From positions 4,870 through 68,869 of the forward strand of contig MESW01000006.1 of assembly GCA_001771135.1 (NCBI GenBank): a stretch of 64,000 nt of DNA. The letters run 5' to 3'. Made by a program: the position numbers and the translations under genes. Below, one piece after another: positions 34,894 to 51,744 of this stretch (position 1 is its first letter; each line of letters opens with the position of its first letter). The notes below the pieces were generated by a model. It did not search any database and was not told where the DNA came from. It was given only the letters and a program-made list of their open reading frames with translations. Source of the DNA: a candidate division CPR3 bacterium GWF2_35_18. Lineage in GTDB: Bacteria; Patescibacteriota; CPR3; GWF2-35-18.

Positions 34894-35071
34894 TTTACAT
34901 GAAAAAGTATCTTTTTGGAAAATTTAAAGCTTTAGATATGAAATCACTATTATATTTGATCGTTTCGGCTCCATCCCAAAATTCTTGACAAAATTATAAC
35001 AATACTTTAACCTATCTATAGAGTTTATCTTTAATTCAGCTATAAAATAACTAATTCAGAGGGGGGTGAGA

Positions 35072-35473
35072 ATGAACTCTATGAAAAACTTAAGTAAAAA
35101 GGCTGGTCTCATTCTTGCTCAGGTAGTTACTGTTTTTTCAATTGCAGCCACTCAAATTTATGCCGCTACTATCTCTCAACCTATTTCTTCAGCAACACTT
35201 ACCGTCGGTGGTGTTGTTAACTTAATTGTAAAAATAGTTTTTGGAGTCGGTATTTTAATTTGTGTCATCTTCCTCGTTTTCTATGGTATTAAATATATTA
35301 CCGCCGGTGATGATGTAAAAGCCATTGAAGGGGCTAGAAAAGGAATCACAGGAGCAATTATTGGTTTAATTGTTATCCTATTAACCTTTGCAATTATTAA
35401 GTTAGTTGCAACTTTCTTGGGTGTTAATGGAGGAGATATCTTTAGTATTCTTCCTGACAGCTATAGCTTCTAA
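35072..35473 (+). CDS. small secreted 'pilin-like' protein, paralog 1 (signal peptide plus two-helix hairpin with the conserved YITAGDD…K…AIIGLIV motif)
   Basis: GGGGGG RBS 5 nt upstream of the ATG. Signal peptide …AATQIYA. Mature part: hydrophobic helix (NLIVKIVFGVGILICVIFLVFYGIKYITAGDDVKAIEGARKGITGAIIGLIVILLTFAIIKLV). The topology is as in TrbC/VirB2-type pilins. Paralogous to 37292..37930 and 37940..38479. Confidence 0.5.
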   Translation: MNSMKNLSKKAGLILAQVVTVFSIAATQIYAATISQPISSATLTVGGVVNLIVKIVFGVGILICVIFLVFYGIKYITAGDDVKAIEGARKGITGAIIGLIVILLTFAIIKLVATFLGVNGGDIFSILPDSYSF

Positions 35474-35496
35474 CAAATTTTGTACTTGTCGAAAAA

Positions 35497-35527
35497 CCCC
35501 GGTCAAACCCGGGGTTTTTCTTTTTAG
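35497..35527 (+). terminator. rho-independent terminator
   Basis: AAAACCCCGGgtcaaaCCCGGGGTTTTTCTTTTT directly after the paralog-1 stop. Confidence 0.7.
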
Positions 35528-35750
35528 ACCACATTTTATACCTATACAACTCCAATTTGCAATTCAATTTGTTGTTATATGGGTTAATACTCAACTACTT
35601 TTGTTACAAATTAGAGTTAGTTGAGTATATAATAATCTTAACCTCTTTTTCTTGACGGAACTACTCTTCCCTGCTAAAACTTATTTACAGACATCACACT
35701 TCAAATCAAACCATAAAAGTTGCTAGTGATATCTTAATAGACAAACATTT

Positions 35751-37187
35751 ATGCTGAAGAAATATTTACCCTACTTTTTATTGACAATTATTGTCCTTAC
35801 TTTTTCTTTGACACTTCTGTTGAACCTACAGTATCCACGCGAAATCTGTAATGATGAGTTTTATTATGTACCAGCCGGTCAAACGATCTGGCAAACCCCA
35901 AACGAACCGAACCTTGAACATCATCCTCCTCTCGCAAAATATCTAATCGGTTTTGGAATTATGACTGTAGGAAATTATTCAATTGGTTGGAGACTGATTC
36001 CGGCTTTATTTGGAATTATCGGTTTAATCCTAGTCTTTTTTCTTACTAAAGAAGTTTTATCTCTATCAGCAAATGGAGATCGAAAGGTAACGATTTTTTT
36101 CTCCCTCTTTGCTCCATTTTTACTTGCTTTTGATTTTCTCTATTTCACGATGTCTCGACAGGCGATGCTGGATATCTTTGTTACAACATTTTTAATCGCA
36201 ACCTCTTTATTCATTTGGAAATATATTCAGACGCAACGTAAAATCTTTATTATCTTACTGGCAATATTTTTTGGTTTAGCTCTCGCTTCCAAGTGGACGA
36301 CTATTCTTTTTGCGCCTTTATTTCTATTTTTAACTCTTAAATATACTAAAACCAGAAAAATTCAAAAGAAAAGCTTTAAGATAGTGATGTTTGAATATCT
36401 GCTGATTGGATTAATTGGTGCGACTGTTTATCTTTGTACTTATATCCCCTATCTCCTAAAAAATAATGCTGGTGAATTTATGATTCTGCAAAAAGATATT
36501 TTGGTAAGAATGTTATATACAAAAGAGACAAACGGAGGAGGAACTTCACCATTTAATACAATCTTCTGGCCTTTCTTTCCTAGCAACACCCTCTCCTGCT
36601 ATTTTGACTATGAAGATAATGTTAATCCTCACAGCTTATCGATTATCAGTAATCCTCTAATAATCTGGTTCTTTTGGCCAGTTTTGATCTACAGTTTCTA
36701 TCAAGCTTTCAAGAAAAAAGAGATAAAGCGCTTTTTTATCCCGATAATTATTATTTGTCTCTATCTTCCCTGGCTTGCGGTTGAACGAGAAAAATATTTT
36801 TATTACATGACCCCTGTTATCCCTTTTTTATGTATTTTGATTGCTCAAATGGTCTTTGATTTTATTACAACAAAAGGAAAAAGTGGTTTGAACAACATAA
36901 AACCTCAAAACCCTATTTTTCTCCCAAATAAAGACCTCTTAGATAAAATCATCATCTTTCTTTATAAATTACAGGAAAAAACCCATAAAGGTAAACTCTT
37001 CCAAAAACTTTCGAAAAAAGCAGATACTCTGATTGCAAATAAATTACTAATATATATATTAGTAATTTGTTATCTACTATTAGTTATTTTATTATTCATC
37101 CTCTATTATCCTCTTTTAAATGGTTTACCCGTTTCCGAAAGCTATCGAAATACAGTTACTTTTTTTTGGCCGTTTTTATTTAAATAA
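35751..37187 (+). CDS. GT-C glycosyltransferase of the PMT/ArnT type (GT39/GT83; dolichyl/undecaprenyl-phosphate-sugar : protein or lipid transferase)
   Basis: First-loop motif DEFYYVPAGQTIWQT…LEHHPPLAKYLIGFGI (DE…HPPL.K is diagnostic of the PMT_2/ArnT families). 11 or more TM helices. Confidence 0.75.
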   Translation: MLKKYLPYFLLTIIVLTFSLTLLLNLQYPREICNDEFYYVPAGQTIWQTPNEPNLEHHPPLAKYLIGFGIMTVGNYSIGWRLIPALFGIIGLILVFFLTKEVLSLSANGDRKVTIFFSLFAPFLLAFDFLYFTMSRQAMLDIFVTTFLIATSLFIWKYIQTQRKIFIILLAIFFGLALASKWTTILFAPLFLFLTLKYTKTRKIQKKSFKIVMFEYLLIGLIGATVYLCTYIPYLLKNNAGEFMILQKDILVRMLYTKETNGGGTSPFNTIFWPFFPSNTLSCYFDYEDNVNPHSLSIISNPLIIWFFWPVLIYSFYQAFKKKEIKRFFIPIIIICLYLPWLAVEREKYFYYMTPVIPFLCILIAQMVFDFITTKGKSGLNNIKPQNPIFLPNKDLLDKIIIFLYKLQEKTHKGKLFQKLSKKADTLIANKLLIYILVICYLLLVILLFILYYPLLNGLPVSESYRNTVTFFWPFLFK

Positions 37188-37291
37188 CTTTTTAAAGAAA
37201 GATCGCATTTCCACTTGCCCCCTAATGTTTCCTATGCTAATATTCTTTTGTAAGGGAATTCCATACTTTTGAACTCAAACAAATTGAGCAT

Positions 37292-37930
37292 ATGAATAAT
37301 AAACTACCACTGAAACTCGCTGTAAATATTGTTATTACAATTGTTTCTTTATTATTCTTTTTTACCTTTATCCCTATCAACAACACTGCTTCCGCTGATG
37401 GCCCCTGTTTATGCGTTTCCGGAAAATGTGCTGGTTGTTCTGCGGCGGTAAATGATCTTGCGTGTGGACTAAATACAGATATCTGTGACAATGCGCAGAA
37501 AAGATACTCCTGTGAACATACTTTATTATACCAATCTCCTAGCAACCCAACCTTTGCCGCTCCAGGAAGATATCTTTGCAGTATCAGCTCTGATCCTGCT
37601 GATCGATATCCAACCACTTTAAATATGGCTTTAAAGGGTTCCTGGTCAGAGGTTTTCAAAACCTGCTTCTGCTCCGCCGGTCAAATGATTCAAAAGGTTA
37701 TTGATATCGCGATCTATTCGATCTCCGGTATTGCCCTAATAGTTTTAGCTTTGGGTGCGATTAAATATATTACCGCTCAAAACAATCCCGATAAAATCAT
37801 CGAGGCTAAAGACACAATTTTGGCTGGAATTGTAGGCCTTATTTTAGTTCTTTTCAGCCTAGCAATTATCAATCTTTTTCAGGGACAGCTTCCAGGTAGC
37901 TGGGGAATAAACTTTTTAAATATACCTTAA
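37292..37930 (+). CDS. small secreted 'pilin-like' protein, paralog 2, with a Cys-rich N-terminal domain
   Basis: Signal/TM MNNKLPLKLAVNIVITIVSLLFFFTFIPI. Cys-rich module DGPCLCVSGKCAGCSAAVNDLACGLNTDICDNAQKRYSCEH. C-terminal conserved IKYITAQNNPDKIIEAKDTILAGIVGLILVLFSLAII. Confidence 0.5.
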   Translation: MNNKLPLKLAVNIVITIVSLLFFFTFIPINNTASADGPCLCVSGKCAGCSAAVNDLACGLNTDICDNAQKRYSCEHTLLYQSPSNPTFAAPGRYLCSISSDPADRYPTTLNMALKGSWSEVFKTCFCSAGQMIQKVIDIAIYSISGIALIVLALGAIKYITAQNNPDKIIEAKDTILAGIVGLILVLFSLAIINLFQGQLPGSWGINFLNIP

Positions 37931-37939
37931 GCATAAAAT

Positions 37940-38479
37940 ATGAAACGTTTTACCATTAAAATCACTAAAATAATCTTAATGCTTTCATTACTCATTATTC
38001 CTCTGAGTAGCATTCTACAAAATCCGACACTGGCTGCCTGTACCTGTATAAATGATTTATGTGTTGCTGGAGCAGCCGGAGATTGTATCGCTTCTCGTGC
38101 TGGTGCTCCTTGTAAATATGACAATGACTGTTCAGTTCTTTCTGATGTTAACTGTACTGCTTGCAGTATTATTACCTTTGTTTTTAAAGTTATTCTTCCT
38201 TGGACTTTTGGTATTGGAATTTTAGCCGCGGTTGTTTTTCTAGTCATTGGCGGTATCCGTTACATAACAGCCGGTGATGATCCCAAAAAAATATCTGATG
38301 CTAAAGGGACTGTTACCTGGGCGGTAATCGGACTTGTCATTCTCATTATAGCCGGATCGATTGTTCGTCTTATATGGTTATTCTTTGGATTTGAAGAAGG
38401 AAAAATATTCTTAATCCCCACGACAACTGCTGACATACCAGGTCAGGAACCTGTCTTAGATTGTATCTTGTGTGAATAA
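37940..38479 (+). CDS. small secreted 'pilin-like' protein, paralog 3, with a Cys-rich N-terminal domain
   Basis: Signal peptide …NPTLA. Cys-rich module ACTCINDLCVAGAAGDCIASRAGAPCKYDNDCSVLSDVNCTAC. C-terminal conserved IRYITAGDDPKKISDAKGTVTWAVIGLVILIIAGSIV. Ends in a CILCE tail. Confidence 0.5.
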   Translation: MKRFTIKITKIILMLSLLIIPLSSILQNPTLAACTCINDLCVAGAAGDCIASRAGAPCKYDNDCSVLSDVNCTACSIITFVFKVILPWTFGIGILAAVVFLVIGGIRYITAGDDPKKISDAKGTVTWAVIGLVILIIAGSIVRLIWLFFGFEEGKIFLIPTTTADIPGQEPVLDCILCE

Positions 38480-38584
38480 AGAATTTTAGAAAAATTGACA
38501 ATTAAAAACTGAAAATCTTAAAATATATATCAACCGGTTTAAAAATCTGCTTATTTTTAGATTTTTAAAGAAAAGGCCTTAATA

Positions 38585-41500
38585 ATGAAGAAAAAACTGC
38601 TTAAATTATTTCCATTCTTAGTCATTATTGCGACATTCCTTTCCCTATCGCAACCACTTTTTTCACCGGCTTTAATTGAGGCCAATCCTCCTGCAGATGT
38701 TTTTACCGGTCAAATTATCCCCGCTTTTATAGGTAACGAATATGATCCCTCTGTTGCTTTTCAGGAATTAGCCGGCTCGACAGTCTATGTTTTTGCGTAT
38801 GACAACTGGGAAGCAGCCTCTGATAGAATTGTTGTGGGAAATAAAGCAATTAAAACTCAGATAAGGGCTGATGGTTCTTTCCAGGTGATGGGACTTCCAC
38901 ATGCTTCTTATTATGGAGTATATTTTCCTTACGACCAATATGGTCCTTATGAACCACGAAATGGTAGTGGTACAGAATATTCTTATAGCTGTTCCTTTCC
39001 TTCCCCTCCACTGGGATCATGTGACGCCATTTGGGGAGGAAATGCCCCTGTTTATCCTATCCCTGGATTGGATGATTACTGCTGTGTTCCTCCGACTCGA
39101 GTAGCAAATACGATCAAAAATACTCCTTTCCGTGCTCCAGAACCAGATGATAATATTATCGATGTCTTTTCTTATGCTCAAGCTATATATAATGGAACCT
39201 CTCTTATTCCTACCCAAATAGCCGATGAATTTATCAAACCTGAAGGCAAGGCAATCTTCGTTACTTCAAATAATAAACTCGATATTGAAAACCATATCAA
39301 TGTTTTTCCCGTAGTTCCAACCTCAGTTTTAAAAATAAAAATTGATACTGAACAGTATGGAAATAGTATCGAAAATAGTGATAGAAGTCAGCTAAAACTT
39401 GGTTATGCAATCGCACACCGTCCGGTTTCAGTGACTGCAACTAGGATAGGATATTACCGTATTGAAATGTGTACTAATATCTTTGGGATACCCTGGGATT
39501 GTGGAATCGATTATGGTACAAAATATCTACCAATTGGTGGCCCAGCAATTACGGGAAGAACTGATGAAAATGGAAACTTTAAAGCCTATGCTCCTTCAGG
39601 ATATTATCATATTAAATATGTCTTTGAAGATGGAACTGAGAATATGGCTTTTCGAGAGATTGATGCCTTGGGAGAAAATCCTGAACCAGCCGACTCTAAT
39701 TTTGGAGTAACTACGGCTCTTTTAAAATCATTGTCTCAATGGAAAACTGATCCTACTGATACCTATATAGAAGACAAGCCTCAAAACGTAATAGACCCTC
39801 CTCTATACAAAGTTTATCGTAAAGGAGTAAGTATTTGGGGTTCAGTTACTAGACCATTTGTAGTTAAAGATAATAACCGCAGTCAATTCAATATACCAGT
39901 CTCTACGTTTTATACGGGAAATGATGGCTCTGATACAGGAGGACAAAGCAATACAATGCCAGATTTAGCGGTCTATACAGAAACGAACTATTCCGCGATT
40001 GATTTGGGAGTAGAGGTAAAACAAGATTTTGAAGCTGTAAATATGTTTAATAACTCCGGAGTTATTTCAGCAGACCATGATGATAACTATTGTGTAACGA
40101 ATAAAAATGCTTGTAACTTTTCCACTGTCAATAAATATGGGATTTTTTATATGCGTACCTCAGAAGCATATTCTTTTATTAATGGTAAAATAAGATTAGC
40201 CGGTTATAACTCAGCAACGAATGAAGTCTTTTTAGACAGTCTACCCCTCTATCCTGATGTTGGCAGTACTGATTATATTGAACCCCAACCACAAGCCCTA
40301 CAAGGATTAATAAGTGGACCAAATAGTTCATATAGTTATAACTTTTCCACAAAAAAACATGATAATAGAGGTATTTACGCAACTGTAAGAGATAATAGAG
40401 GACTGGCTGTACCTGGAGCTCAAGTTACTATTGCTCCTAATGAACCCGATCTAAAAAGCAGTAGTGTCGCTCAAACACAAGGAATTAGTTTATTAACTGA
40501 TGCTGATGGATCAGTGTATCTTTCTCCTCACGTCTTCTCTGAAAACGCAGAATTAATGACAGATTCGGCAACCTGTAACGGTTCTGATGATAGTGTTGCT
40601 GAAAATGGATATACCTTAATAGCTTCTCAAGGAGATACCTTTAAAGCTTCTCTTGATCTTACCAAAGATCAGATTTGTGATTCTATTGACGCGCAACAAT
40701 CTGTTGAAATTGCCAGTATTAAGGGAAAAAATGTCTACACTAACGAACCAGGAATGATTCAATTAGCCAAAGCATTACAGACAGATAATATTTTTACGGT
40801 AAGCGCCGCGGAAACCGAATCTGCTTGCCAAATATATAAACAAGATAGTAGGACGGTCGCTCCCTATGTCCCAAATGATCCAGTGGCAAACGAACAAGAA
40901 TGTGTGAATCTTTATGGATATTTTCTTTGTACACCAGACCCATTTGTTACGATACAAGGAGAATTTTTTGGCGGTGTTTCCGAAAATGTGATAGTTTTGG
41001 CTGCAGGTGATGCTTCTGGAAGCTATCGATCGACAGAAATTATTAAAGAAGAAGTTATTCCTAATCCGGAAACAACTCTTCATTCATCATCTGGATTTGG
41101 TGGTTTCTATGATACTACTAATAAAAAATTATATATTCACATTCCCTGCGCCTGGAAATCAGCTCAACTGAAAATAGAGGCTGGTGAGGAAAAAACAGAT
41201 AACTCTCAAGGAGATGTTGAACTTACAGTTATCGAACAGATCCGAGTTTATCTCATTCAATTCGGTGCAAATTTAGCCAAAGGTTTTGCTGGCGCAAGAG
41301 ATGCAGTTGACATTGGTGGGAGCTTTGATTACGACGAAGCTGTTGAAGAGATTGATGAAGTAGCAGAATCAGGTATCGACTCAATCATAAATAAAGGCCT
41401 TTCTGAGCGTCATTTTATAAAAGGTGATGCCCGAAAAGATGAAATGCAAGTCGCTATCTCAGAAACAAACGTTAGTGGTACACCCCCCAGCTATACCATA

Positions 41501-43654
41501 AATCCTCCTGCGGCCACATTCTTTTTGAAACCAGCTTGTCATGTTTTTGATTTGTTAAATTATCAAACTTGGGGTAATTTTGCTTGCAATCTCATTGAAG
41601 GTATGGGGAAATTTTTACAAGGCAGCATGGAATTTTTAGAAGATACTATTCTTCATACAAAGCCGATTTCAGAGCTATCCACAATTACTACATTATGGAA
41701 TCTTTCTCGTAATATTAGTAATGGAATAATTATTATTTTGGTTTTAATCTTTGCGGTTATGTATATGTTCCGAATGGATTCCAAAGATCTTCCTCTAAAA
41801 GAGCTTCCAATGAAAATTGTGAAGGCAGTGATCTTAATTAATCTCTCTCTCCTCTTCTGTCAGCTATTTATTGATATTTCTAATGTAGCTACAAGATCAA
41901 TATTCCTGATGGTTCAGAATGCTTTTTCACCTACTGGACAGACAGCTGTAATTAACTTTGCTTCTTTTGCAGCGATTATCACGACAATAGCTCTTTCGGC
42001 TGGAGCCTCAGGAGTGACAGCAGGCGTCGGTATAGCAACTGCAGTGGTTGCTTCTGGTGGAACAGCTTTAGTCGCTATAGGTATTGGAGTCATTGTTGCT
42101 GTCCTTGCCTTCTTTATGGCAATTATTACCTTAGCTGTAATTATTTTAATTCAATTTGTTGTTCGTTTAATGGTCATCTATCTTTGTGTTATTCTCGCTC
42201 CGCTTCGATTCCTTATGGGAATACTCCCTCAAGGCGAAAGTTTTGTAAAAATTTGGGATACAACCTTTTATAGTTTTGTTTTTATGCAGGTATTAGCGGC
42301 ATTATTTCTCAATGTCGGAATTGCTCTCATGTCTAATATCCCTAGTGGAGCTGGTTTAGAAATTGTTATTTCTCAATTGGCCGTAGGAGTAGCAATCTTT
42401 ATGGTGGCCTTGAAGTCTCCAAGCTTAATCCTACAACTTCTTGGTGGTGGTGGAATGGCTGGAAAATTAGCTGGTGGAGCTGGTGAGACTCTTACTGAAT
42501 GGAGACAGGGACAACAAGAAAAAATGGGTGCTGAAGCAGTTGCAGGTCGCGCAGGAGAATTCAAAGCTGAATCTCAAATGCATGGCGGTGGAGTAAGAGG
42601 CTTTGGAAAAGCGACCCTTTCCAGAGTGCCTATAATTTCAACTTACACAAAAGCAAAAAATGCGAACACTCAAGCTCAAGCAAATAGACTGTTCACAATG
42701 AAAAGAAACCAAGATATTCAGAAAGAAGGACAAGGATCAGTTCTAGCTCAAGGAACAAAAGGTCAAAGTGGAGATCTAACTCATATAGAACAAACCGAAG
42801 GCGGTAATGGTGTTTTACGATCGGTCAATGCTTGGGGTAGCGGTAGAAATGATCTATCTGCAGAAATTGATACCAACAGAAGTCCTACTGCTAATCAGTA
42901 TGTTCAAGATCATAATAGAGATATTGAGAATGATCAAGAGGTCAAAGATATTGACCAACAAGCAAATACTGAACAAACACAACAAATTGAAGCTATCATT
43001 AGACCTGATGTTGAAACTCAGGTAAATAATGAAATTAATGCTTCAAGCCCGACTTTAAGTCTTGATGATGCTTCTGTGACTCAAGCAGCCCAAAGTAGAA
43101 TTAACATGGGTGGAGCGGCTGGAAAGACGATTGATCAAGTGAAAGAAGACGTTAGAAGAGAAAGAACTGCAGCTAGAGCCCCAATGATGGCAGCCAAGAT
43201 GAAAGAACAACCTCGAATTGATCAAGCAATGGCAAGTCATCAAGCTGAAATCCAAAAGATTAAAGATGAAGCAAATAAAAAGAAAATGGAAGCACGCAAG
43301 AAAAAAGGTTATATCGTTACTGATCCTAATACTGGGACTGCTAAAGTCAATGGACAACAATTACTAGAGATTGCGGAACAAGAACTTAAAAATGATCCAA
43401 AACTGAAAAAAGAAGTTGAAAGACAGATAAAAGCGGCTGGACTAGCAAAGACTGTTAACGCAAAAGCTCTACACGCTGCAAAACTTGCTGAAGGAACTGA
43501 AGGTGGAGTAGAGGTTGGAACTCGACAACAAAGAAATATACAAAATCGCCGAAGACAAGCTGGAGCTGGACAAAGAGTCAATTATGCCGCCGCTGGAATG
43601 AATTATCGAACAGGAGATCTCTCTGGGCTTAATGAACCGGAAGAAAATATCTAA
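38585..43654 (+). CDS. giant (1689 aa) envelope protein: secreted N-terminal domain of about 1080 aa plus a C-terminal polytopic Gly/Ala-rich TM region (VirB6/TrbL-like) and a charged, Q-rich cytoplasmic tail
   Basis: Signal peptide MKKKLLKLFPFLVIIATFLSLSQPLFSPALIEA. About 7 TM helices between residues 1075 and 1360 (e.g. IIIILVLIFAVMYMF; ALSAGASGVTAGVGIATAVVASGGTALVAIGIGVIVAVLAFFMAIITLAVIILIQFVV; FYSFVFMQVLAALFLNVGIALMS). Then LLGGGGMAGKLAGGAGE and about 330 aa of K/E/Q-rich tail. No nucleotide-binding motif. Confidence 0.5.
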   Translation: MKKKLLKLFPFLVIIATFLSLSQPLFSPALIEANPPADVFTGQIIPAFIGNEYDPSVAFQELAGSTVYVFAYDNWEAASDRIVVGNKAIKTQIRADGSFQVMGLPHASYYGVYFPYDQYGPYEPRNGSGTEYSYSCSFPSPPLGSCDAIWGGNAPVYPIPGLDDYCCVPPTRVANTIKNTPFRAPEPDDNIIDVFSYAQAIYNGTSLIPTQIADEFIKPEGKAIFVTSNNKLDIENHINVFPVVPTSVLKIKIDTEQYGNSIENSDRSQLKLGYAIAHRPVSVTATRIGYYRIEMCTNIFGIPWDCGIDYGTKYLPIGGPAITGRTDENGNFKAYAPSGYYHIKYVFEDGTENMAFREIDALGENPEPADSNFGVTTALLKSLSQWKTDPTDTYIEDKPQNVIDPPLYKVYRKGVSIWGSVTRPFVVKDNNRSQFNIPVSTFYTGNDGSDTGGQSNTMPDLAVYTETNYSAIDLGVEVKQDFEAVNMFNNSGVISADHDDNYCVTNKNACNFSTVNKYGIFYMRTSEAYSFINGKIRLAGYNSATNEVFLDSLPLYPDVGSTDYIEPQPQALQGLISGPNSSYSYNFSTKKHDNRGIYATVRDNRGLAVPGAQVTIAPNEPDLKSSSVAQTQGISLLTDADGSVYLSPHVFSENAELMTDSATCNGSDDSVAENGYTLIASQGDTFKASLDLTKDQICDSIDAQQSVEIASIKGKNVYTNEPGMIQLAKALQTDNIFTVSAAETESACQIYKQDSRTVAPYVPNDPVANEQECVNLYGYFLCTPDPFVTIQGEFFGGVSENVIVLAAGDASGSYRSTEIIKEEVIPNPETTLHSSSGFGGFYDTTNKKLYIHIPCAWKSAQLKIEAGEEKTDNSQGDVELTVIEQIRVYLIQFGANLAKGFAGARDAVDIGGSFDYDEAVEEIDEVAESGIDSIINKGLSERHFIKGDARKDEMQVAISETNVSGTPPSYTINPPAATFFLKPACHVFDLLNYQTWGNFACNLIEGMGKFLQGSMEFLEDTILHTKPISELSTITTLWNLSRNISNGIIIILVLIFAVMYMFRMDSKDLPLKELPMKIVKAVILINLSLLFCQLFIDISNVATRSIFLMVQNAFSPTGQTAVINFASFAAIITTIALSAGASGVTAGVGIATAVVASGGTALVAIGIGVIVAVLAFFMAIITLAVIILIQFVVRLMVIYLCVILAPLRFLMGILPQGESFVKIWDTTFYSFVFMQVLAALFLNVGIALMSNIPSGAGLEIVISQLAVGVAIFMVALKSPSLILQLLGGGGMAGKLAGGAGETLTEWRQGQQEKMGAEAVAGRAGEFKAESQMHGGGVRGFGKATLSRVPIISTYTKAKNANTQAQANRLFTMKRNQDIQKEGQGSVLAQGTKGQSGDLTHIEQTEGGNGVLRSVNAWGSGRNDLSAEIDTNRSPTANQYVQDHNRDIENDQEVKDIDQQANTEQTQQIEAIIRPDVETQVNNEINASSPTLSLDDASVTQAAQSRINMGGAAGKTIDQVKEDVRRERTAARAPMMAAKMKEQPRIDQAMASHQAEIQKIKDEANKKKMEARKKKGYIVTDPNTGTAKVNGQQLLEIAEQELKNDPKLKKEVERQIKAAGLAKTVNAKALHAAKLAEGTEGGVEVGTRQQRNIQNRRRQAGAGQRVNYAAAGMNYRTGDLSGLNEPEENI

Positions 43655-43675
43655 ACGTTTTTAAAAGATTGTTTC

Positions 43676-43722
43676 TGAGCCGGCTTAAAATTATAAATTT
43701 TAAGCCGGCTCTTCTTTTTCCA
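43676..43722 (+). terminator. rho-independent terminator
   Basis: GAGCCGGCTTAAAATTataaATTTTAAGCCGGCTC followed by TTCTTTTT. Confidence 0.6.
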
Positions 43723-43837
43723 AACTCGAATAATTCCCTTCCAACATTTTGTTGATTTTGCTATTTAAAGGCTATTTATTGTATAATTTAAAGAGTTTTT
43801 AGATACATTAAGCTATAAACTATATGAAAGGAACAAC

Positions 43838-45406
43838 ATGAGCGGACCAGTGGAAGATATGGCACAACGTGCCGGCCAATATAAAGCCGAACAGGAAATA
43901 GCTCGTTTCAATCAGATGCGTGATGAATTAGACACAATTGAATCAGATCCGAATGCATCTGAAGGTAAGAAAGTCCAAGCAAGGAGGGGTTTTTTTGAAA
44001 GACTTCTGCATGCAAAGCGTGAAATCTATGATACGGGAACACTTGGTTATTTAATGGCCACACTTGGTTTTAATTGGCTACGCCAAACAATGCATCATGC
44101 TAAACATGCTTTTGTCAAAGGACAAATGGAAGTCCTAAAAACTGAAGCAGATGCAATCAAAGTAGAACACATGCAAACCGAACTTTTCAACATGCATGTA
44201 GAAGAAGGTCACACCATGCAAGTTCAGGATGCGTTTTTTGGATATACTGGAGGTGCGGTTAAGGAGCTTTCTAAACTTGCCGCGCACGCTTTCTGGGTTC
44301 GAGATGTTGATATTTATTGTCCTCTTGATCGTAAAGAGGTCGTTTCCGGACTAATCCATGGTCATGAAAATGCCTTTACCTTTCGCGAACTAGCTCGAGC
44401 CTATAACGCCCATTACGATCTTTATTATCCTATGTTGCTAGAAAAATTCGAAAAAGGCGAAATCAATGAAAAGGAGTTTCAAAAATATGGTTTTCACCGT
44501 CGCCAATCAGAAAGAATTAAAGGAATTGGAGCAATCAGAGAAGATGATGATCCCCGTAAAACTGACATGACCTTACCTGAGCTTTATTCTCTGGGAGTTT
44601 GGTTGTTTGGAGAAAAATCTAACCCCGATGAAGACAGAGTACTTGTAAAGAAAGAATCTGGGGTACTAAGAGATGAGCAACATTTAGAAATACCTGACAA
44701 TAAAAAATATATTGAAGAGTGGCAAAAAGCGACCGGATTTACCGAAGATGTGATGTATGGAGATCGAGATTATTGGACGAAGTGGATTATGTTTCAACTC
44801 AAAGCCCCAACCATGTTTAACGTTGCTTTAAGAAAAATGGGGTATAAAGTTGATTTTCATGGAGAAATTAATGATGAAAAAGCAAGAAAGAATGCCAAAT
44901 ATGGAGATGTGATTGGTAAATACTACGGACATAACAATGACTATTACCACCGATCACTCTCTATGGGTGTCGGAGGACAGATTGGACGAGCCCAAATGCG
45001 TAATCGACAAGAGGCCGAAGATCGACTAAGTGAAGTTGCGGAGCTCGTTGAATTACTTAAGAAAGAACATCCAACCACAGATGAACAAACTCGCATTGCC
45101 GAACTTGTAGATAGAGAAGATGCCCGAATGGATGCTGAAAGTATTGATCAGGGAATCTTGAATACCGTTGCAGATACTATTGTTAGGAGAAAAGCCCAAG
45201 AAGAACACTGGGAACTGGATCCACACAAACAAACAAAAGAAGAGAGAACAAAAGTTGAAAATTATCGGAAGTGGGTTCAAAAAAGACTCCAACAAAGATG
45301 GGCGGAATCTCAAGGTAAAAGAGCAACAAATGTTGGAGAAGTTCGTGACTTTGCCGATAAACAAGCTTGGGATATCTGGGATGACGCTAGTTCTGAAGAA
45401 CAATAA
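43838..45406 (+). CDS. hypothetical soluble protein (522 aa) embedded in the pilin-like/giant-protein locus
   Basis: No signal peptide, TM helix or Walker motif. His/Trp/Tyr-rich with many acidic residues. Unrecognised family. Confidence 0.4.
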   Translation: MSGPVEDMAQRAGQYKAEQEIARFNQMRDELDTIESDPNASEGKKVQARRGFFERLLHAKREIYDTGTLGYLMATLGFNWLRQTMHHAKHAFVKGQMEVLKTEADAIKVEHMQTELFNMHVEEGHTMQVQDAFFGYTGGAVKELSKLAAHAFWVRDVDIYCPLDRKEVVSGLIHGHENAFTFRELARAYNAHYDLYYPMLLEKFEKGEINEKEFQKYGFHRRQSERIKGIGAIREDDDPRKTDMTLPELYSLGVWLFGEKSNPDEDRVLVKKESGVLRDEQHLEIPDNKKYIEEWQKATGFTEDVMYGDRDYWTKWIMFQLKAPTMFNVALRKMGYKVDFHGEINDEKARKNAKYGDVIGKYYGHNNDYYHRSLSMGVGGQIGRAQMRNRQEAEDRLSEVAELVELLKKEHPTTDEQTRIAELVDREDARMDAESIDQGILNTVADTIVRRKAQEEHWELDPHKQTKEERTKVENYRKWVQKRLQQRWAESQGKRATNVGEVRDFADKQAWDIWDDASSEEQ

Positions 45407-45543
45407 AGCAAACAAGTTTCATATTTGAAAACAGTTTTCTTAATCCTGTCTATTCTGTGTTTTGCTATTTCTCTTTTATTTCTTTCTAATTTCTTGTAGA
45501 ATAATTACTGGAAGTTAGTTAATCTTCTTATTAATCCAAAATT

Positions 45544-48500
45544 ATGAAAGTGCCTTCAAAAAGGTTAAAAAAACTCATTTCACTAGGTTTGAATATCTTA
45601 CTTACTCTTTCTTTAATATTACAATCAAGCCCAGCTTTCACCACTCCAGTAAATGCTTATGACCCATTTTCATTAACTCCGGAAAAGCTAGGAATTTTTA
45701 AAGGTTTACCCGATAAATTCAAAGGGTTTTTTGATTCCGCTTCCCAAAAATTAAATGGTTTATTCAAAACGCCATCTGGAACTACAGGTGGAGCATCTGA
45801 AGGCTCACCCGCTCAACCACTTCCAGACGAAGAACACCCTATTATCCCAATCTCAGCTGATTTAATTCAAGTAGATGCTACATGGAGTGCTAGCTGTGTT
45901 CCCGATATGCCTCCTGATGAATATTTAGCATCTGGTGGTGGAGGTGGAACCTGTTATATGACTCCATATGAACCTCCGGTACCACAAAAACCAATTGAAG
46001 ATAATGGAAGTTGTGCTGAAATAAACATAATTTCTGATCGTAGTTGTGTCATTGCTCCGGGACGAAGTGTGAATTTTGTAGTTGAAATTGTCAACAATTG
46101 TGACACCACTTTTACAATTTTGAGTATTTTTGATGACCATAAAGGTCTTGTGAATATTAAAGAAACAAAAACTGTGGGTCCTGGAGAAAAAATCACCACT
46201 CTTCCCTACGATATTGTGGTTAAAGAACCACTTATAAATACCGTAACTTTAACAGCTCAATTTAGCGATTATAATCCTTTTATTATCGAAAAAATAGGGA
46301 CACTGATTACTATTGACCCTTTGGGTTGCCAGATTCATCCCGTTTGTTTAGCCCTTTCATATGAAGCTGAACCAACCTGTGTAGAAAATTCTGGCGATCC
46401 TTCTAATTTCATCGCTAGAATTAACAATAATTGCACAAATCAAATAACCAGCACCCAACTGATAACCTCTTTTAACACTCAGAATCTTGGAACTTTAGTT
46501 GCTGGGGAAACTGTTATTGAACTCGGAGAAAAAAATATCACTTCAAATATAACAGAAACGGCTAATTTAACAGCCATCATGGATACTTATTTTATTAATG
46601 TAACAGACACAGCAACTGTTTCCTTATCTCCTTTCCCTGTAGGATGTGTGACAAATCCACCTAGTACTTGTATTTCTTTTCACGAAGTTGCTATTCCTTC
46701 TTGTGTTGAAAACTCTGGAGAACAATCAACTTTTACCATTTCAGTAACAAATAACTGTACTGAGAATTTCACAATTAGCAGTATTACGGATACTTTGGCT
46801 CCTGGAGGAACAATAGATATCACAGGACACGAATCTGTCCCGGTTTCAGGAAGTCAGTCATTTAGTTACAATTTAACAATTAACAATCCTGTTTCTGGAA
46901 CTGCTAACCTGACCGGAGTTTTGGCTTCTGGAACAACAATAACAGCAACAACAACTTCTGGTGTCTCCGTTGGAAACTGTATATCCTTAAATGAATTAAA
47001 TCTTCCTCTTGGACTTCATAGTTTAAATAAAAATACAAACATTTCTAATCTAATATCTAAAATAAAAGATTTTATCCCAAATGCTGTAAATCATATTAAA
47101 GAAATCTTCACTCCAGACAATGTTACTGCAGCTACCCCAATTTGTGATACCTGTCAAACAGAGAATTACGGTTGGGATGAAAATCCTCCTGCCGGTTTTG
47201 ATGACGAATATAATGATTATTATCAAATTGAACCTGGCATTTGTATGGTCGAATGCAACCCCATGTCTGATCCTTTTGAAAGTGACTCCTGTCCGGATCC
47301 ATATCAATGTCCTGAAAGAGTAGCCTCCTATACCAATTATGGCAATTGTGATGAAGAGGTTAAGACTTGTACTGTACCAATACTGGGAACGCAATTTGAT
47401 GCTTGTTGGGGATTGTATCCTCCTGCTGCTCATACCCCTTATGATTATACTGATCCCGATGCCTCATGTACGCTAGACGACTTACCCACAACAACGCCAA
47501 CTGGTGAAACTGTTGGTGGAGACCCACAAATATATGAAGTTTTCTCGCAAAATATCACTCAATATAACTACGAAGAGTGTAATAGACATGACAGCATAAG
47601 TAAATATAATCGAGCCTGTGCCCCACAATATTCATATACCAAAGCAGATATGCCCACCTGCTATCCAACAGATCTGGGAACAAGCTATGGAGCAACTGCT
47701 CGCAAATTAAATGGTTGTAATGAACTCATTGAACCTACTGAACTTGATGATGGAACACTTGTTGGTGTTTCTCCACCCCAAAGTCCTAACAAAGCGGACG
47801 CATACGATTGTAGTGAAAAAACATGTAACGCTACAGACGGACCACGTTGTGTGCAGGGAACTGAAGCAGTCTGTCGAAAAGCAATTGAAATTAAAACCTG
47901 TGAACAGCTTATCACTACAACTTCTGAACCTCCTGCTGATAATTGGGGGGAAAACTGCGTTGTCCAAGCACTTCCAGCACAAGAGATAACTTGTGGAAAT
48001 GCAGAAGGTTGTCCTGCTGATGGCGGATCAGAATACGGATGTAGTGTTGAAAATATCTGTACTCAAGACGTAAGTTATTGGGATGGAAATTCAGAAGATC
48101 ATGATTGTGATGATGACGGAAGTGCTGATTGTTGTTCAGAATGTGAGTTTGAAGGAGGAGTTGAAGTTTGTAATGATAATCCAGGAAATAATGATTGTGG
48201 TGGAAGCTGTTGTAATTGTGATGATGGGTACGAGGGTTGTTTAAATTTTGATACCAGTAGTAATCCTGAATCAATCCCTCCTACTCCAGACGCATGCAGT
48301 GGTGGAAATTGTTCCTGCGAAGAAGGTTCTAGTGCGGGAGAATGTGCTAACGCTGATAACACTCTTTGCGCTGATAATGGAGAAACTGGCTGTGCTGATT
48401 TGGAAGATTGTTGTAAGCTCAAAGAACATTGGGAGTGGCCAATAACTTCTGATGCACTTGACTGTGCTATCTATCAATATACTGAAAGACATATGATGTA

Positions 48501-50610
48501 TCGCGTTCTTTATTATAGCAATATGATTACAATTCCCATTCGCGTCAGAAATGTAAGTGATCATGTAATTAAAGAACCCGTAACAATGACAGTAGACCTT
48601 CCTGATTTTCTTGATCTGTATGATGTTAATCCCTATCCTGAAGATTATGTGGGAACTCCTGAAGAGGATCCTGAAAATAATTGGGTGGCGGTGGAAGCTG
48701 AACTCCCAGGAATTCCTGATTTAATTAATTATATGGCTACACTACATATGAACTGGACAGATGGAACATCCGGAATTGCGAATGGTCCTCATGGAGGAAC
48801 AATCACTTGGACTTTTTGGAATGAAGATGTAGAAGTTGGTTTACCTATCGGGGCTGATTATACTTTTACTCTAAGAGTGGTTCCTGCCGACAAAAACAGT
48901 GCTGGTCTATCCTTTTATGGAAATCACCGTATTTCATATAACGGAACGCAAGACTCTGAACTCAACCACTACATAAATAATTTATATTCTGATAACCGCT
49001 TGATAAATCTAGAGTACAAAACACAGTGGTCTGATTCTGAAGTTGTAGAGCTTCAATCTTTTAGAATTGGAAGCGATGTTGTCTCTAAAGCTTCTCCTGG
49101 ATGTGGAGGTTACGATGAAGATGGTAATCCTCTTACAGACGGTTGTTCTGTAGATCCAAACTCTCGACCTTTTGGCTGGCCAGTCACTGGAACTATTGCT
49201 CAAGATTGGGGTGGTATTGAAGACTATAACACTGATTCTGATATCACCTGGAGTAATCCTTTAGCTGAAGAATGGGGTCCCAGATACGGAGAAGGTGAAA
49301 AATATCAGATTTGTGAGAATGAAAGTAATGAATACTGGTCACACCAAGGAATAGATCTTGTTCCGATTGAAGGAGAAGCCTCTGAAACTGAGATTTATTC
49401 TACTCATGCTGGAAATGTAGTAGCAGCTGAATGTTTTGAAGATGAGAGAGGTTGCAGTGTCACGGTAAGCTCAAATGTTGATGATGATTGTTGGCCGGAA
49501 TTTGTGACTACATATAATAATTTAATTCCTGAACTACTAAGAGTTTTACCCAATGAATATGTTCCCCGACATAAATTGTTGGGTCTCATGGGAGCAACGG
49601 GTAAAGGAGCTGGTGGAACTGATTATACTGGATTTACCCATACTAACTATCAAATCCGTTATCCAGTCACTGAAAAGCTAGACCTCAATAATGATAATTG
49701 TCCGGCTTATCCCCCACCTTTAGACGCAGATAATCCTGATGGGTATAATACACCAGCAACTTATTTTCCAATTGAACAGGACAACTGTCATGGATACGAG
49801 GATAATCCGGAAGATCCGGAATATGTTGACCCTATTACAAATGACTTTTACAACCTCAGAAAACCAGAAGAAGATTCTGCAGATCTAAGCAAAGACGAAG
49901 AATACGAATGTAACCTCGACCCATACATATGTGAAACCCCATTTCCTAATCGCGCCTATTCTACCTGTCAATGTGTCACTGAAGATTGTGATGTAGAAAT
50001 GATCGATTATCCTCCATACTTCTTTTGCGAAAATAAACGTCAGGATCAAGATGTTAGTAGCTGTTACTATGATAATCCTACTGGATTCCAAAAAGACTTT
50101 GGCGGTAATAGTATCCCTATGAGTTGTCCTATTCAAGAACCAGAACCATTCTGTCTTGGAATATGGAGTAGTGTAAATGTTCCGTTCAGCCATGCTGGTT
50201 TTGACTGGATAACCCATGCAGGACCGACAGTTGGAACTGAAGTTTTTTCTGTAGTTGATGGTGAAGTAATTATTAGTGGCTGTAATGACGGTTACGGAAA
50301 TATGGTTCTTATCACTGATGGTACTTATGATTATTATTACGGACATTTAGCTCCTGGTACCAATGTCGCGATGGGACCAATATCCTCGGGAACGCTAGTG
50401 GGAGCAATAGGAATGACACCTACATGCGCTGGAGAACATTCCACAGGGCCTCATCTCCACTTTGAAGTGAGAACTGCAGGAGCACACTGTGGTTATGCCA
50501 ATCCAGCCTGTACCATCGATCCCATCTCAATTGGTATTTGCGGCCCCTCGCTTGGTGCTGGTGAATATTCTGGAGTCGCTGAACATTGCGATAACTGTAG
50601 TTGTGAATAA
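45544..50610 (+). CDS. giant (1688 aa) secreted protein: three tandem Cys-bounded Ig-like repeats, a Cys-rich central region and two C-terminal M23/LytM peptidase domains
   Basis: Signal peptide …SSPAFTTPVNA. Three repeats of about 95 aa (C.E.N..S.R/D…I.V.NNC…F.I.SI.D…GC) at residues about 157-480. The central region (about 800-960) carries over 40 Cys (…CDDDGSADCCSECEFEGGVEVCNDNPGNNDCGGSCCNCDDGYEGC…). First M23-like module HQGIDLV…THAGNVV…LGLMGATGKG…THTNYQIRY (about 1290-1390). Second, with full motifs: HAGFDW…GTEVFSVVDGEVI…GYGNMVLITDG…YYYGHL…GPHLHFEV (about 1550-1640). Confidence 0.7.
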   Translation: MKVPSKRLKKLISLGLNILLTLSLILQSSPAFTTPVNAYDPFSLTPEKLGIFKGLPDKFKGFFDSASQKLNGLFKTPSGTTGGASEGSPAQPLPDEEHPIIPISADLIQVDATWSASCVPDMPPDEYLASGGGGGTCYMTPYEPPVPQKPIEDNGSCAEINIISDRSCVIAPGRSVNFVVEIVNNCDTTFTILSIFDDHKGLVNIKETKTVGPGEKITTLPYDIVVKEPLINTVTLTAQFSDYNPFIIEKIGTLITIDPLGCQIHPVCLALSYEAEPTCVENSGDPSNFIARINNNCTNQITSTQLITSFNTQNLGTLVAGETVIELGEKNITSNITETANLTAIMDTYFINVTDTATVSLSPFPVGCVTNPPSTCISFHEVAIPSCVENSGEQSTFTISVTNNCTENFTISSITDTLAPGGTIDITGHESVPVSGSQSFSYNLTINNPVSGTANLTGVLASGTTITATTTSGVSVGNCISLNELNLPLGLHSLNKNTNISNLISKIKDFIPNAVNHIKEIFTPDNVTAATPICDTCQTENYGWDENPPAGFDDEYNDYYQIEPGICMVECNPMSDPFESDSCPDPYQCPERVASYTNYGNCDEEVKTCTVPILGTQFDACWGLYPPAAHTPYDYTDPDASCTLDDLPTTTPTGETVGGDPQIYEVFSQNITQYNYEECNRHDSISKYNRACAPQYSYTKADMPTCYPTDLGTSYGATARKLNGCNELIEPTELDDGTLVGVSPPQSPNKADAYDCSEKTCNATDGPRCVQGTEAVCRKAIEIKTCEQLITTTSEPPADNWGENCVVQALPAQEITCGNAEGCPADGGSEYGCSVENICTQDVSYWDGNSEDHDCDDDGSADCCSECEFEGGVEVCNDNPGNNDCGGSCCNCDDGYEGCLNFDTSSNPESIPPTPDACSGGNCSCEEGSSAGECANADNTLCADNGETGCADLEDCCKLKEHWEWPITSDALDCAIYQYTERHMMYRVLYYSNMITIPIRVRNVSDHVIKEPVTMTVDLPDFLDLYDVNPYPEDYVGTPEEDPENNWVAVEAELPGIPDLINYMATLHMNWTDGTSGIANGPHGGTITWTFWNEDVEVGLPIGADYTFTLRVVPADKNSAGLSFYGNHRISYNGTQDSELNHYINNLYSDNRLINLEYKTQWSDSEVVELQSFRIGSDVVSKASPGCGGYDEDGNPLTDGCSVDPNSRPFGWPVTGTIAQDWGGIEDYNTDSDITWSNPLAEEWGPRYGEGEKYQICENESNEYWSHQGIDLVPIEGEASETEIYSTHAGNVVAAECFEDERGCSVTVSSNVDDDCWPEFVTTYNNLIPELLRVLPNEYVPRHKLLGLMGATGKGAGGTDYTGFTHTNYQIRYPVTEKLDLNNDNCPAYPPPLDADNPDGYNTPATYFPIEQDNCHGYEDNPEDPEYVDPITNDFYNLRKPEEDSADLSKDEEYECNLDPYICETPFPNRAYSTCQCVTEDCDVEMIDYPPYFFCENKRQDQDVSSCYYDNPTGFQKDFGGNSIPMSCPIQEPEPFCLGIWSSVNVPFSHAGFDWITHAGPTVGTEVFSVVDGEVIISGCNDGYGNMVLITDGTYDYYYGHLAPGTNVAMGPISSGTLVGAIGMTPTCAGEHSTGPHLHFEVRTAGAHCGYANPACTIDPISIGICGPSLGAGEYSGVAEHCDNCSCE

Positions 50611-50619: not shown

Positions 50620-51744
50620 ATGAAAAGCATTTTAAATAAAATTAAATTAAATATCTCCAAATTAAAAGATAAACTCCAAGAATCTAAGCTGTTACACAAA
50701 TGGGAAGAAAACCTTTCCGATAAGGGAAAACAAATATGTAAGTATATAAAAACCCATCCAAAACAATCTTTAGTGGTGGCTTCGGTAATAGTTATAATAA
50801 TAACAATTGGAGTATATCTGGTTTCCATACTCATAAAACCAAAACCGATTACTACAACCCCCCACCCTTTTACCGAAGTTACGACCTATAAATTAAATTC
50901 CGTTCCGACCAAAATAGAATATGGTAAATTTAATTCGGAATTAAGAGAGTTTCCTTCTAATATCTCTATCTATCAAACAAAAGAAAAGCCTTTATCAGGA
51001 TTACAAGAAATCGGTAATTTACAAAGGATTCTTCAAACCTTAGGATTTACTTCTGATGCCCGAAATTATTCTAACAAAAAAGCGATTGCCTATTATGAAA
51101 AAGGTAAATCTCTAACAGTAACGTTGATCGGCGATAAAATATCTTTCAGTACAGGATTGAATGTCGAACCAGAGCTTCTACAACAAACAAACGACATTCG
51201 TTCGCTATCTGATTTACTCCAAACTGGAAAATATTTTTTTAGTGAAAATGGGTTAAATTTCGAGATACAATTTTCTGATCCAAAAACCGTATACAGTAGA
51301 ATGGGAGAGCTTGGTCTTTATGAAATTAACAATGTTGAACAGGCGGATGTTGTAACCTATATTTTACAGCCGCAAATTGAATCTTTAAATATTGCTAATA
51401 ACCAATTTCTGCCTTATATAAGCTTGACAAAAAATGGCAAAATTGTCGCCTTTTCTATTTTTAACAAAAAAATCGTTGCGGCTACTAAAAATCCGGTGAT
51501 AAGTATAAGTAAGCTGAAAAAATCGATCCAAAATAATGAAGCTGTCTCTTTAAGTAAAATTGAAACCAAATATCTAGAGCCTCAAAGTATTGTGATAAAA
51601 AGTACTCAAGTTCTTTACTATTATAATGAGGCACAGGAAGTTTTAACGCCTGTTGTTACTCTGCAAGTAACCCTTAAAAAAGATGGTGAAGAAAAAGAAG
51701 CTACGCTATATCTACCCGCTTTTGAAAACAAATATTACTATTAA
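50620..51744 (+). CDS. hypothetical single-pass membrane protein (374 aa)
   Basis: N-terminal cytoplasmic region of about 45 aa, one TM helix (LVVASVIVIIITIGVYLVSILI), then an extracytoplasmic beta-rich domain. No recognisable motif. Confidence 0.4.
   Translation: MKSILNKIKLNISKLKDKLQESKLLHKWEENLSDKGKQICKYIKTHPKQSLVVASVIVIIITIGVYLVSILIKPKPITTTPHPFTEVTTYKLNSVPTKIEYGKFNSELREFPSNISIYQTKEKPLSGLQEIGNLQRILQTLGFTSDARNYSNKKAIAYYEKGKSLTVTLIGDKISFSTGLNVEPELLQQTNDIRSLSDLLQTGKYFFSENGLNFEIQFSDPKTVYSRMGELGLYEINNVEQADVVTYILQPQIESLNIANNQFLPYISLTKNGKIVAFSIFNKKIVAATKNPVISISKLKKSIQNNEAVSLSKIETKYLEPQSIVIKSTQVLYYYNEAQEVLTPVVTLQVTLKKDGEEKEATLYLPAFENKYYY

Follow-up and report, generated by a model that had tools for sequence, protein, structure and literature searches.

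The giant gene and its product

The window analyzed here, i.e., the whole stretch of 64,000 nucleotides from the candidate division CPR3 bacterium GWF2_35_18, contains a single ATG-initiated open reading frame (ORF) at 38585..43654 (+) that encodes a protein of 1689 amino acids (aa), hereafter called the giant protein. It was first pointed out in a sequence-only reading of the same DNA as a protein that combines a TrbL/VirB6-like membrane region with a huge secreted N-terminal domain, and the ORF listing of the window returns it with the same coordinates, strand, and length. Since it extends over 5 kb in DNA of about 38% GC and has 22 homologs in the databases, this is not a chance ORF; the nearest of them, a hypothetical protein of candidate division CPR3 bacterium GW2011_GWE2_35_7, is 99% identical.

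Hydropathy divides the giant protein into four zones, namely, an N-terminal hydrophobic segment (residues 3–31), about 1000 aa without any hydrophobic segment, a hydrophobic block (residues 1040–1287) with six to eight segments of helix length, and a hydrophilic tail. The segment 3–31 follows an MKKK n-region and looks like a signal peptide, and residues 1–31 (MKKKLLKLFPFLVIIATFLSLSQPLFSPALI; 38585..38677, +) are thus annotated as a putative signal peptide or N-terminal anchor. In the GenBank ortholog P0001 (1671 aa, 99% identical) the start is annotated 18 codons later than ATG 38585, so that the n-region would be lost along with most of the signal peptide's hydrophobic core. A purine-rich GAAAAGG is found about 8 nt upstream of ATG 38585.

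Some of the boundaries and compositional details of the sequence-only reading had to be revised. The membrane region, given there as Gly/Ala-rich and spanning residues 1075–1360, is indeed rich in these residues (13.8% Ala and 11.0% Gly in residues 1076–1365), and the quoted run ALSAGASGVTAGVGIATAVVASGGTALVAIGIGVIVAVLAFF corresponds to residues 1136–1177, while the limits by hydropathy are approximately 1040–1290. Consequently, the ectodomain measures about 1010 aa rather than the 1080 aa proposed, and the tail about 400 aa (residues 1291–1689) rather than 330 aa. The tail is rich in Q, E, K, R, and A (Q 9.3%, E 8.3%, K 7.8%, R 6.5%), as had been noted for Q, K, and E, but the poly-Q and poly-K tracts ascribed to it are not there, the longest runs being two Q and three K. 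This part (residues 1291–1689 and the stop codon; 42455..43654, +) consists of a linker rich in Gly and a charged extension without Cys that is poorly conserved (column identity of 7–16%), has 27% D/E/K/R, and contains no run longer than three. Sixteen of the 18 cysteines lie in the ectodomain and none in the tail; among the ectodomain cysteines, the pair C985/C1001 is invariant in the alignment, and C136 and C167 are shared by at least 90% of the sequences.

Membrane domain

Residues 1006–1290 (41600..42454, +) form a VirB6/TrbL-like polytopic membrane domain of six to eight, most likely seven, helices; its likeness to VirB6/TrbL is supported by its predicted fold, the family matches of its relatives, and profile alignment. 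The AlphaFold model of residues 1005–1300 (predicted local distance difference test, pLDDT, 66; predicted template modeling score, pTM, 0.58) has six long helices. When it was compared by Foldseek with 350,542 chains of the PDB, the first five ranks were all taken by TrwI/VirB6 of R388 (8rtd_L, 8rt9_F, 7o3v_F/G/J) with probability 0.92–1.00 and E 0.014–0.12; apart from further VirB6 chains, no other match had probability above 0.11. With low TM-scores of 0.29–0.42, this match is supportive of VirB6 identity rather than conclusive.

The relatives point in the same direction. Matches to TrbL with E ≤0.01 were found in three of 18 close relatives and 12 of 47 distant ones, with one additional match to TrbL_4, and TrbL is the only recurrent Pfam family among these 65 proteins; one relative, P0007, passes the gathering score of PF04610 TrbL (26.9 bits, cut-off 25.9), the only one to do so. 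An exhaustive search by a hidden Markov model (HMM) built from the membrane domains of the 18 close homologs retrieved 24,477 cluster representatives with E ≤0.001, of which 14,018 had E ≤1e-10. We aligned 156 of the 24,477, placing the query first (effective number of sequences, Neff, 5.8), and this deep alignment matched TrbL of the Streptomyces conjugative plasmid pZL1 (hhalign 94.5%, E 7.6e-8, 149 columns) and, at a lower level, R388 TrwI (27.9%, E 6.3e-4). A tblastn search of 72,556 plasmids with the membrane domain of a family member gave three marginal matches (E 0.07–0.4), one of them in an annotated TrbL gene. Taking all this into account, we conclude that the membrane domain very likely belongs to the TrbL/VirB6 superfamily, and that the earlier identification of the giant protein as VirB6-like is correct; by sequence, the tie of the query itself to the family is transitive, through its relatives, rather than direct.

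Invariant residues of the domain include R1042, N1046, N1086, S1088, Q1093, D1097, R1194, P1206, and P1215, among others. The Gly/Ala-rich stretch, on the other hand, is its least conserved and least confidently modeled part (pLDDT <50 for model residues 112–164). Hence, although the VirB6 identity stands, the richness in small residues that the sequence-only reading considered characteristic of TrbL/VirB6 is not diagnostic.

In the 18 homologs, loops 1061–1073 and 1216–1227 are rich in Lys and Arg (1.8 and 1.9 per sequence, respectively) and alternate with the Lys/Arg-poor loops 1098–1124 and 1252–1260. Given an exported N-terminus, the positive-inside analysis thus predicts seven transmembrane (TM) helices with the N-terminus outside and the C-terminus inside, the orientation known for Agrobacterium VirB6. 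The seven helices counted in the sequence-only reading are reproduced by this charge bias and not by the AlphaFold model with its six long helices. As the tail is charged, Cys-free, and 400 aa long, it is more likely to be cytoplasmic.

Ectodomain and its conservation

Conservation was assessed on an alignment of 20 full-length homologs of 1268–1741 aa. Judged by column identity to the query, conservation peaks not in the membrane domain, but in the first ~320 aa of the ectodomain, with 58% in residues 51–100 and 42 invariant columns (18–20 homologs). The membrane block comes second (31–38%), and the middle of the ectodomain (residues 350–1000) and the tail have column identity of 7–21%. Accordingly, the ectodomain is divided into a conserved N-terminal beta-rich module (residues 36–420; 38690..39844, +), modeled by AlphaFold2 with pLDDT of about 80 at residues 37–127, and a variable beta-rich part (residues 421–1005; 39845..41599, +) with column identity of 10–21%, which includes the pair C985/C1001.

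No Pfam family was found in the ectodomain above threshold, and for the N-terminal module a profile search of PDB sequences gave no match either. Below threshold, residues 597–664 resemble a CarboxypepD_reg/Big_1-like beta-sandwich (PF13620, E 0.003–0.008), with a hint of MG4 as well. The pattern T/R-x-D-x-G-x-F ... P-x-G-x-Y recurs at about 91–113, 324–343, and 636–650; this pattern resembles that of prealbumin-like sandwiches of the CarboxypepD_reg or CnaB type, which these stretches may represent. The AlphaFold model of residues 28–1012 is beta-rich at a low overall pLDDT of 52, and Foldseek finds for it only generic antibody/Ig-like matches. These matches suggest that the ectodomain holds beta-sandwiches, and we read nothing more from them. 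Most of the invariant positions in the N-terminal module hold Phe, Tyr, Trp, Gly, or Pro, and not one His, Cys, Ser, Glu, or Lys of residues 36–420 is shared by all of the 18–20 homologs, which argues for a structural or binding module rather than an enzyme. A search with the alignment of the N-terminal module in a set of 5.8 billion proteins returned two partial proteins only (the word prefilter was saturated), and the ectodomain alignment is shallow for this reason.

Gene neighborhood and the split secretion system

The giant gene is preceded on the same strand by three genes for VirB2-like pilins of a type IV secretion system (T4SS). Pilin 1 (35066..35473, +; 135 aa) has a signal segment, two hydrophobic helices, and a match to PF18895 (E 9.3e-8, 32.5 bits vs. 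the cut-off of 26.6). Pilin 2 (37292..37930, +; 212 aa) has a Cys-rich N-terminal extension with 10 Cys and matches PF18895 (E 3.2e-6, 27.5 bits) and the NCBIfam Mbov_0395 pilin-like family (E 1.5e-5), and pilin 3 (37940..38479, +; 179 aa), which adjoins the giant gene on its 5′ side, matches PF18895 (E 1.7e-11) and TrbC/VirB2 PF04956 (E 0.003). In 14 of 15 related loci, a pilin gene is the immediate 5′ neighbor of the giant gene.

Similarly, the genes on the 3′ side correspond to a T4SS operon of relatives. In loci L003 and L004, the contiguous order is pilin(s), the giant protein, a 749-aa protein, a 338-aa protein, an M23 protein, PrgI (VirB3), a CarboxypepD_reg protein, a TraC-like protein, and VirB4; a distant family member, P0067 (“Patescibacteria group bacterium,” locus L018), is also encoded within an operon of PrgI, TraC-like, and VirB4 genes. 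In the window, the giant gene is followed by a gene for a soluble, highly charged 522-aa protein (43838..45406, +), which has no Pfam or NCBIfam match and no hydrophobic segment and seems lineage-specific, its homolog being found only in the syntenic locus L002. The next gene (45544..50610, +) encodes a secreted Cys-rich protein of 1688 aa (signal segment 8–29, 82 Cys) with a C-terminal M23 peptidase (PF01551, E 2.9e-19). Its residues 1194–1373 are similar to the 749-aa protein of L003 (L3_749, E 1.8e-17) and residues 1550–1645 to the M23 protein of that locus, so that the 749-aa and M23 types of the relatives seem to be fused in it, and it is a probable wall-hydrolase component in the role of VirB1. 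Then come a bitopic membrane protein of 374 aa (50620..51744, +; TM 47–77), 61% identical to its counterpart in L002 and weakly similar to the 338-aa and 321-aa proteins of L003 and L004 (E 1e-4), and, as the last gene of the module, a secreted 297-aa protein (51748..52641, +; signal segment 1–28, 10 Cys), which corresponds to the C-terminal part of the M23 type (residues 549–677 of L3_M23_778, E 2.6e-10). No second polytopic membrane protein that could be VirB6 is present in the operons of L003, L004, L018, or the window.

PrgI, TraC-like, and VirB4 genes are absent from the window by Pfam scans and tblastn, while CPR3 genomes do have VirB4. The sequences that carry VirB4 of the CPR3 bacterium GWF2_35_18 (L016 and L017) are 100% identical to positions 54595–64000 of the window over 9406 bp and continue beyond its end. 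Past jag/khpB, dnaN (from ~63414 of the window) is followed, on the opposite strand and within ~5 kb past position 64000, by genes for VirB4 (619 aa; P-loop_TraG, 100.9 bits), a TraC-like protein (224 aa), and a fusion of PrgI with CarboxypepD_reg (572 aa). Thus, two modules, pilin/VirB6/hydrolase at 35066–52641 (+) and PrgI/TraC-like/VirB4 on the opposite strand, converge from about 12 kb apart on dnaA/rnpA/yidC/jag/dnaN, dnaA itself (59512..60855, −; Bac_DnaA, E 3.5e-70) lying between the two halves. The secretion system is complete but split in two modules around dnaA, and the giant protein occupies the VirB6 slot of this pilin-bearing T4SS.

Scans for relaxase and coupling-protein families among window ORFs of at least 110–120 aa and among the called genes of L016 (1–12455) found none, so that conjugation of DNA by this system is improbable. 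In patescibacterial T4SS, pilins are present, the genes lie near dnaA, and a relaxase is mostly missing (PMC12102498). The window and L016 show the features of this monoderm-type T4SS as described by Wang (2023) and Quinonero-Coronel (2025), namely, pilins, PrgI/VirB3, VirB4, proximity to dnaA, and no relaxase seen, and the two modules at dnaA agree well with the origin-proximal position of such genes (PMC12102498).

The giant gene is flanked by candidate transcription signals of its own. A promoter-like TTGACA-18-TAAAAT (38495..38524, +), 60 bp upstream of the start codon, matches the consensus in 11 of 12 positions, and a terminator-like hairpin with a 16-bp stem and a subsequent T-run (43677..43711, +) lies 23 bp past the stop codon; both are consensus matches, being the best and the strongest, respectively, in the 18.6 kb scanned. 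Hence, the giant gene may be transcribed on its own.

Several further features of the locus may be mentioned. Pilins 2 and 3 (212 and 179 aa) are long for VirB2-like proteins, each with 10 Cys in an N-terminal extension before the two-helix core. Between pilins 1 and 2, the window encodes a polytopic glycosyltransferase of the PMT_2/PMT type (35751..37187, +; 478 aa; PF13231, E 6.8e-12; PF02366, E 1.4e-8). Three lineages have such a PMT/PMT_2-type (GT-C) gene interspersed with the pilin genes or next to them (35751–37187 in the window, 6921–8396 in L002, and 2690–6241 in L003), and the pilins or the ectodomain could possibly be glycosylated by this enzyme. In the 572-aa fusion, PrgI carries an extracellular extension of ~490 aa.

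Comparison with known VirB6 proteins

How unusual the giant protein is depends on the reference set. Among the 157 best-scoring of the 24,477 relatives, the membrane domain is preceded by 200 aa or more in 126 (median 457 aa), and a C-terminal hydrophilic extension is usual (median 351 aa). The N-terminal extension, claimed to be exceptional for a VirB6 homolog, is so with respect to the described VirB6 proteins, but not among the protein's own relatives. The conserved N-terminal module is present in every one of the 41 relatives, among these 157, that have 750 aa or more preceding the membrane domain. The module was found in only 11 of 185,579 species genomes, labeled WWE3, CPR3, and (by automated assignment) Saccharibacteria, and this ~320-aa module defines a narrow WWE3/CPR3-type subfamily. 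For ten distant relatives looked up by cluster, a single organism name was returned, “Patescibacteria group bacterium.”

The closest structural comparison is R388 TrwI/VirB6 (PDB: 7O3V, 8RT9, 8RTD). Both proteins are polytopic inner-membrane subunits encoded in T4SS loci with VirB2-like pilins, VirB3, and VirB4, and the alignment of TrwI to the domain of the giant protein includes the C-terminal helices and the Pro-Ser...Gly-Gly end. However, TrwI has 342 aa, nearly all of them TrbL domain, whereas the giant protein is five times longer, with the additional ectodomain of ~1000 aa and tail of ~400 aa; moreover, no counterpart of the VirB5, outer-membrane core complex, relaxase, and coupling protein of R388 is seen in the window or L016.

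VirB6 proteins with additional domains are represented by TraG of the F plasmid and the RvhB6 paralogs of Rickettsiales. Extended VirB6 proteins are defined by central or C-proximal hydrophilic domains (PMC12857230). With its VirB6-like helical core and large hydrophilic domains, the giant protein resembles them, and its C-terminal tail of ~400 aa falls under this definition; its largest addition does not, being N-terminal, beta-rich, and exported behind a putative signal peptide.

Among patescibacterial proteins, SEML1_0013 of Southlakia epibionticum ML1 (3267 bp, 1088 aa) is essential, TrbL/VirB6-like by structure, and encoded beside the pilin gene SEML1_0014 (Wang et al. 2023; PMC10633639). 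It shares with the giant protein its large size, the VirB6-like domain, the adjacent PF18895 pilin gene, and a T4SS without a recognizable relaxase, but differs in that, according to the domain ranges of Table S2, its helical domains start at about residue 156 and its extra mass appears to be mostly C-terminal. In 2025, a survey reported 480 VirB6 homologs in Patescibacteria, most of which match the VirB6 profile of the MPF-T class and 12 the PrgH profile, while patescibacterial VirB4 clusters with MPF-FATA; VirB6 was scarce in some classes, which was attributed to sequence divergence (PMC12102498). PrgH, ConG, and TcpH of the MPF-FATA/FA systems belong to monoderm T4SS of the same broad class, but they serve conjugation systems that have no pilus; the likeness is drawn here from their descriptions. 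Ectodomains of the kind seen here are not discussed in the survey (PMC12102498), and a VirB6 subunit of such build was not described in the literature searched, although the T4SS itself was already known and is now under intensive study.

Proposed role and alternative explanations

Thus, the giant protein is, with high probability, the VirB6-type polytopic membrane subunit of a chromosomal, origin-proximal T4SS of CPR3, and for its ectodomain we infer a role as a stalk or adhesin. In the R388 structure, a pentamer of VirB6 forms the base where VirB2 pilins load beneath VirB5. By analogy, the membrane domain would oligomerize into a platform or translocon at which the pilins encoded next to it are extracted from the membrane and polymerized; the observation that bears on such a contact is the adjacency of a pilin gene in 14 of 15 loci. 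The Sec-exported ectodomain of ~1000 aa would remain tethered to TM helix 1 and cross the wall as a stalk or adhesin, thus taking over the extracellular role that in other systems belongs to VirB5 or surface adhesins. Its conserved first ~320 aa could contact a conserved partner, either a pilin or other parts of the machine, the variable middle would face the environment or the host cell, and the charged tail of ~400 aa, if in the cytoplasm, could contact VirB4. As in Saccharibacteria, where it has been demonstrated genetically, such a system is more likely to serve the host-dependent lifestyle.

A more far-reaching version of this scheme, which we put forward only tentatively, is that in these ultrasmall, monoderm bacteria with a cell wall VirB6 has its own envelope-spanning stalk and tip. 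In that case the ectodomain, probably oligomeric, would stand in for VirB5 and surface adhesins, nucleate the VirB2-like pilus, and be the first part to touch the host cell; the ~320-aa module would be a new domain for docking to the pilin or the host, and host specificity would be determined by the variable middle.

Several observations weigh against the assignment to VirB6 or the role derived from it. The query has no TrbL/VirB6 match in Pfam or NCBIfam (the NCBIfam scan gave no match at all), and none turns up for its membrane region taken separately, even with E relaxed to 10. The model behind the fold matches has a mean pLDDT of 66, their E values exceed 0.001, and their TM-scores range from 0.29 to 0.42. 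With the profile of 18 sequences, no VirB6 chain was found among PDB sequences (chance matches, E >0.6), and hhalign gave 0.3% for TrwI and 14.8% for TrbL; as to the deep alignment, TrbL of pZL1 had been chosen via a weak BLAST match of a family member, and is itself just below the TrbL_4 cut-off (25.7 vs. 27 bits). On the helix count and the side of the tail, the charge bias (seven helices) and the model (six) do not agree. The functions of stalk, adhesin, or VirB5 substitute are drawn by analogy, the ectodomain model having a pLDDT of 52 and generic Ig-like matches. Finally, promoter-like and terminator-like sites flank the giant gene itself, and in the WWE3 locus L001 (GCA_013335095, 9620–14224) only the pilin–giant pair is present, with no other T4SS gene, including VirB3 and VirB4, within 10 kb on either side.

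The last two observations would also suit a protein that is mainly a surface adhesin or envelope fiber, working with the pilins independently of a VirB4-driven machine and using the polytopic region as a mere anchor. The proportions of the protein are compatible with this, as the ectodomain makes up 60% of its length and includes the N-terminal module, whose conservation exceeds that of the membrane domain; the location of the ATPase module 12 kb away, across dnaA, fits as well. Still, an anchor would not need a conserved polytopic domain of ~285 aa with the invariant N1046, N1086, S1088, Q1093, D1097, and R1194, nor would it be expected to resemble TrbL/VirB6 both by fold and by profile, and in L003, L004, and L018 the homologs are encoded contiguously with PrgI, TraC-like, and VirB4. 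We therefore find this explanation unlikely, although the role of the giant protein may be in part independent of VirB4. In L001, a second pilin-like/CarboxypepD_reg gene is located beside a sortase gene, 5 kb downstream.

An enzymatic ectodomain, modifying the wall or glycans and placed beside the secretion channel instead of acting as a stalk or adhesin, is less likely still. Wall-active functions are indeed abundant around the giant gene, including the M23 peptidase encoded downstream and the products of neighboring PMT, GT2, and SpoIID genes, and the strongly conserved N-terminal module belongs to no known family. But its invariant residues have the aromatic, Gly, and Pro character of a beta-sandwich core, with none of the His, Cys, Ser, Glu, or Lys mentioned above, and the domain hints in the ectodomain (CarboxypepD_reg, Big_1, MG4, Ig-like) are all to binding or structural beta-sandwiches, and so this reading was rejected. 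The least credible alternative takes the membrane region for a transporter permease (ABC-2, major facilitator superfamily, MFS, or similar) with a substrate-capturing ectodomain. Patescibacteria do rely on imported nutrients, and a weak KEGG-style label, “ABC transporter permease” (K01992), had been assigned to SEML1_0013 (PMC10633639). Nevertheless, no MFS, ATP-binding cassette (ABC), or other permease family was found by Pfam and NCBIfam scans of the protein, its membrane region, and the 65 relatives, the operon has no ABC ATPase gene, and the best transporter in the fold comparison, a multidrug and toxic compound extrusion (MATE) protein (6gwh), has probability 0.10 and E 2.7, far from the 0.92–1.00 of the VirB6 chains. 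A match to a transporter, named in the sequence-only reading as the outcome contrary to its proposal, was thus not obtained by these comparisons, and the permease reading was rejected. The TrwI/VirB6 folds on the first five ranks, TrbL as the sole recurrent family, and the T4SS operon all favor the VirB6-type subunit.

The assignment is of interest because Patescibacteria, which live attached to host cells, account for a large part of the diversity of bacteria. In Saccharibacteria, so far the only group to have been tested genetically, both the T4SS and its pilins are essential (PMC10633639), and how a pilus is built by a Gram-positive-type T4SS without VirB5 is an open question (PMC12857230, a review of 2025). 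A VirB6 protein with a giant extracellular domain, encoded right after the pilin genes, is a concrete candidate for the extracellular base or tip that is missing from such a pilus. Since Pfam misses the giant protein, proteins of this kind may help to explain the apparent scarcity of VirB6 in some classes of the 2025 survey (PMC12102498). It is also possible that the range of that survey, which took in 20 coding sequences to each side of virB4, misses a module located 12 kb away across dnaA.

Other features of the window

Upstream of the T4SS module, an envelope-glycan cluster (26774–34893, −), syntenic in L002, encodes a SpoIID-domain protein, two DUF6541 paralogs, a methyltransferase, and two GT2 glycosyltransferases. 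At 4002–5642 (+), a Golvesin_C/CBM35-like protein of 237 aa is followed by a protein with SUKH-1 (SMI1/KNR4) and DUF4274; SUKH proteins often are the immunity proteins of polymorphic toxin systems. A protein of 1006 aa encoded at 14723–17743 (−) contains a GGDEF domain, which suggests cyclic-di-GMP signaling in this reduced genome. Finally, the region 3801–22589 (−) contains six tRNA genes (Asn, three Ser, and two Arg) and the tmRNA gene (22164–22589), whose predicted tag peptide is AKNYNDADLGNEDGFAAPSYAFAFA.

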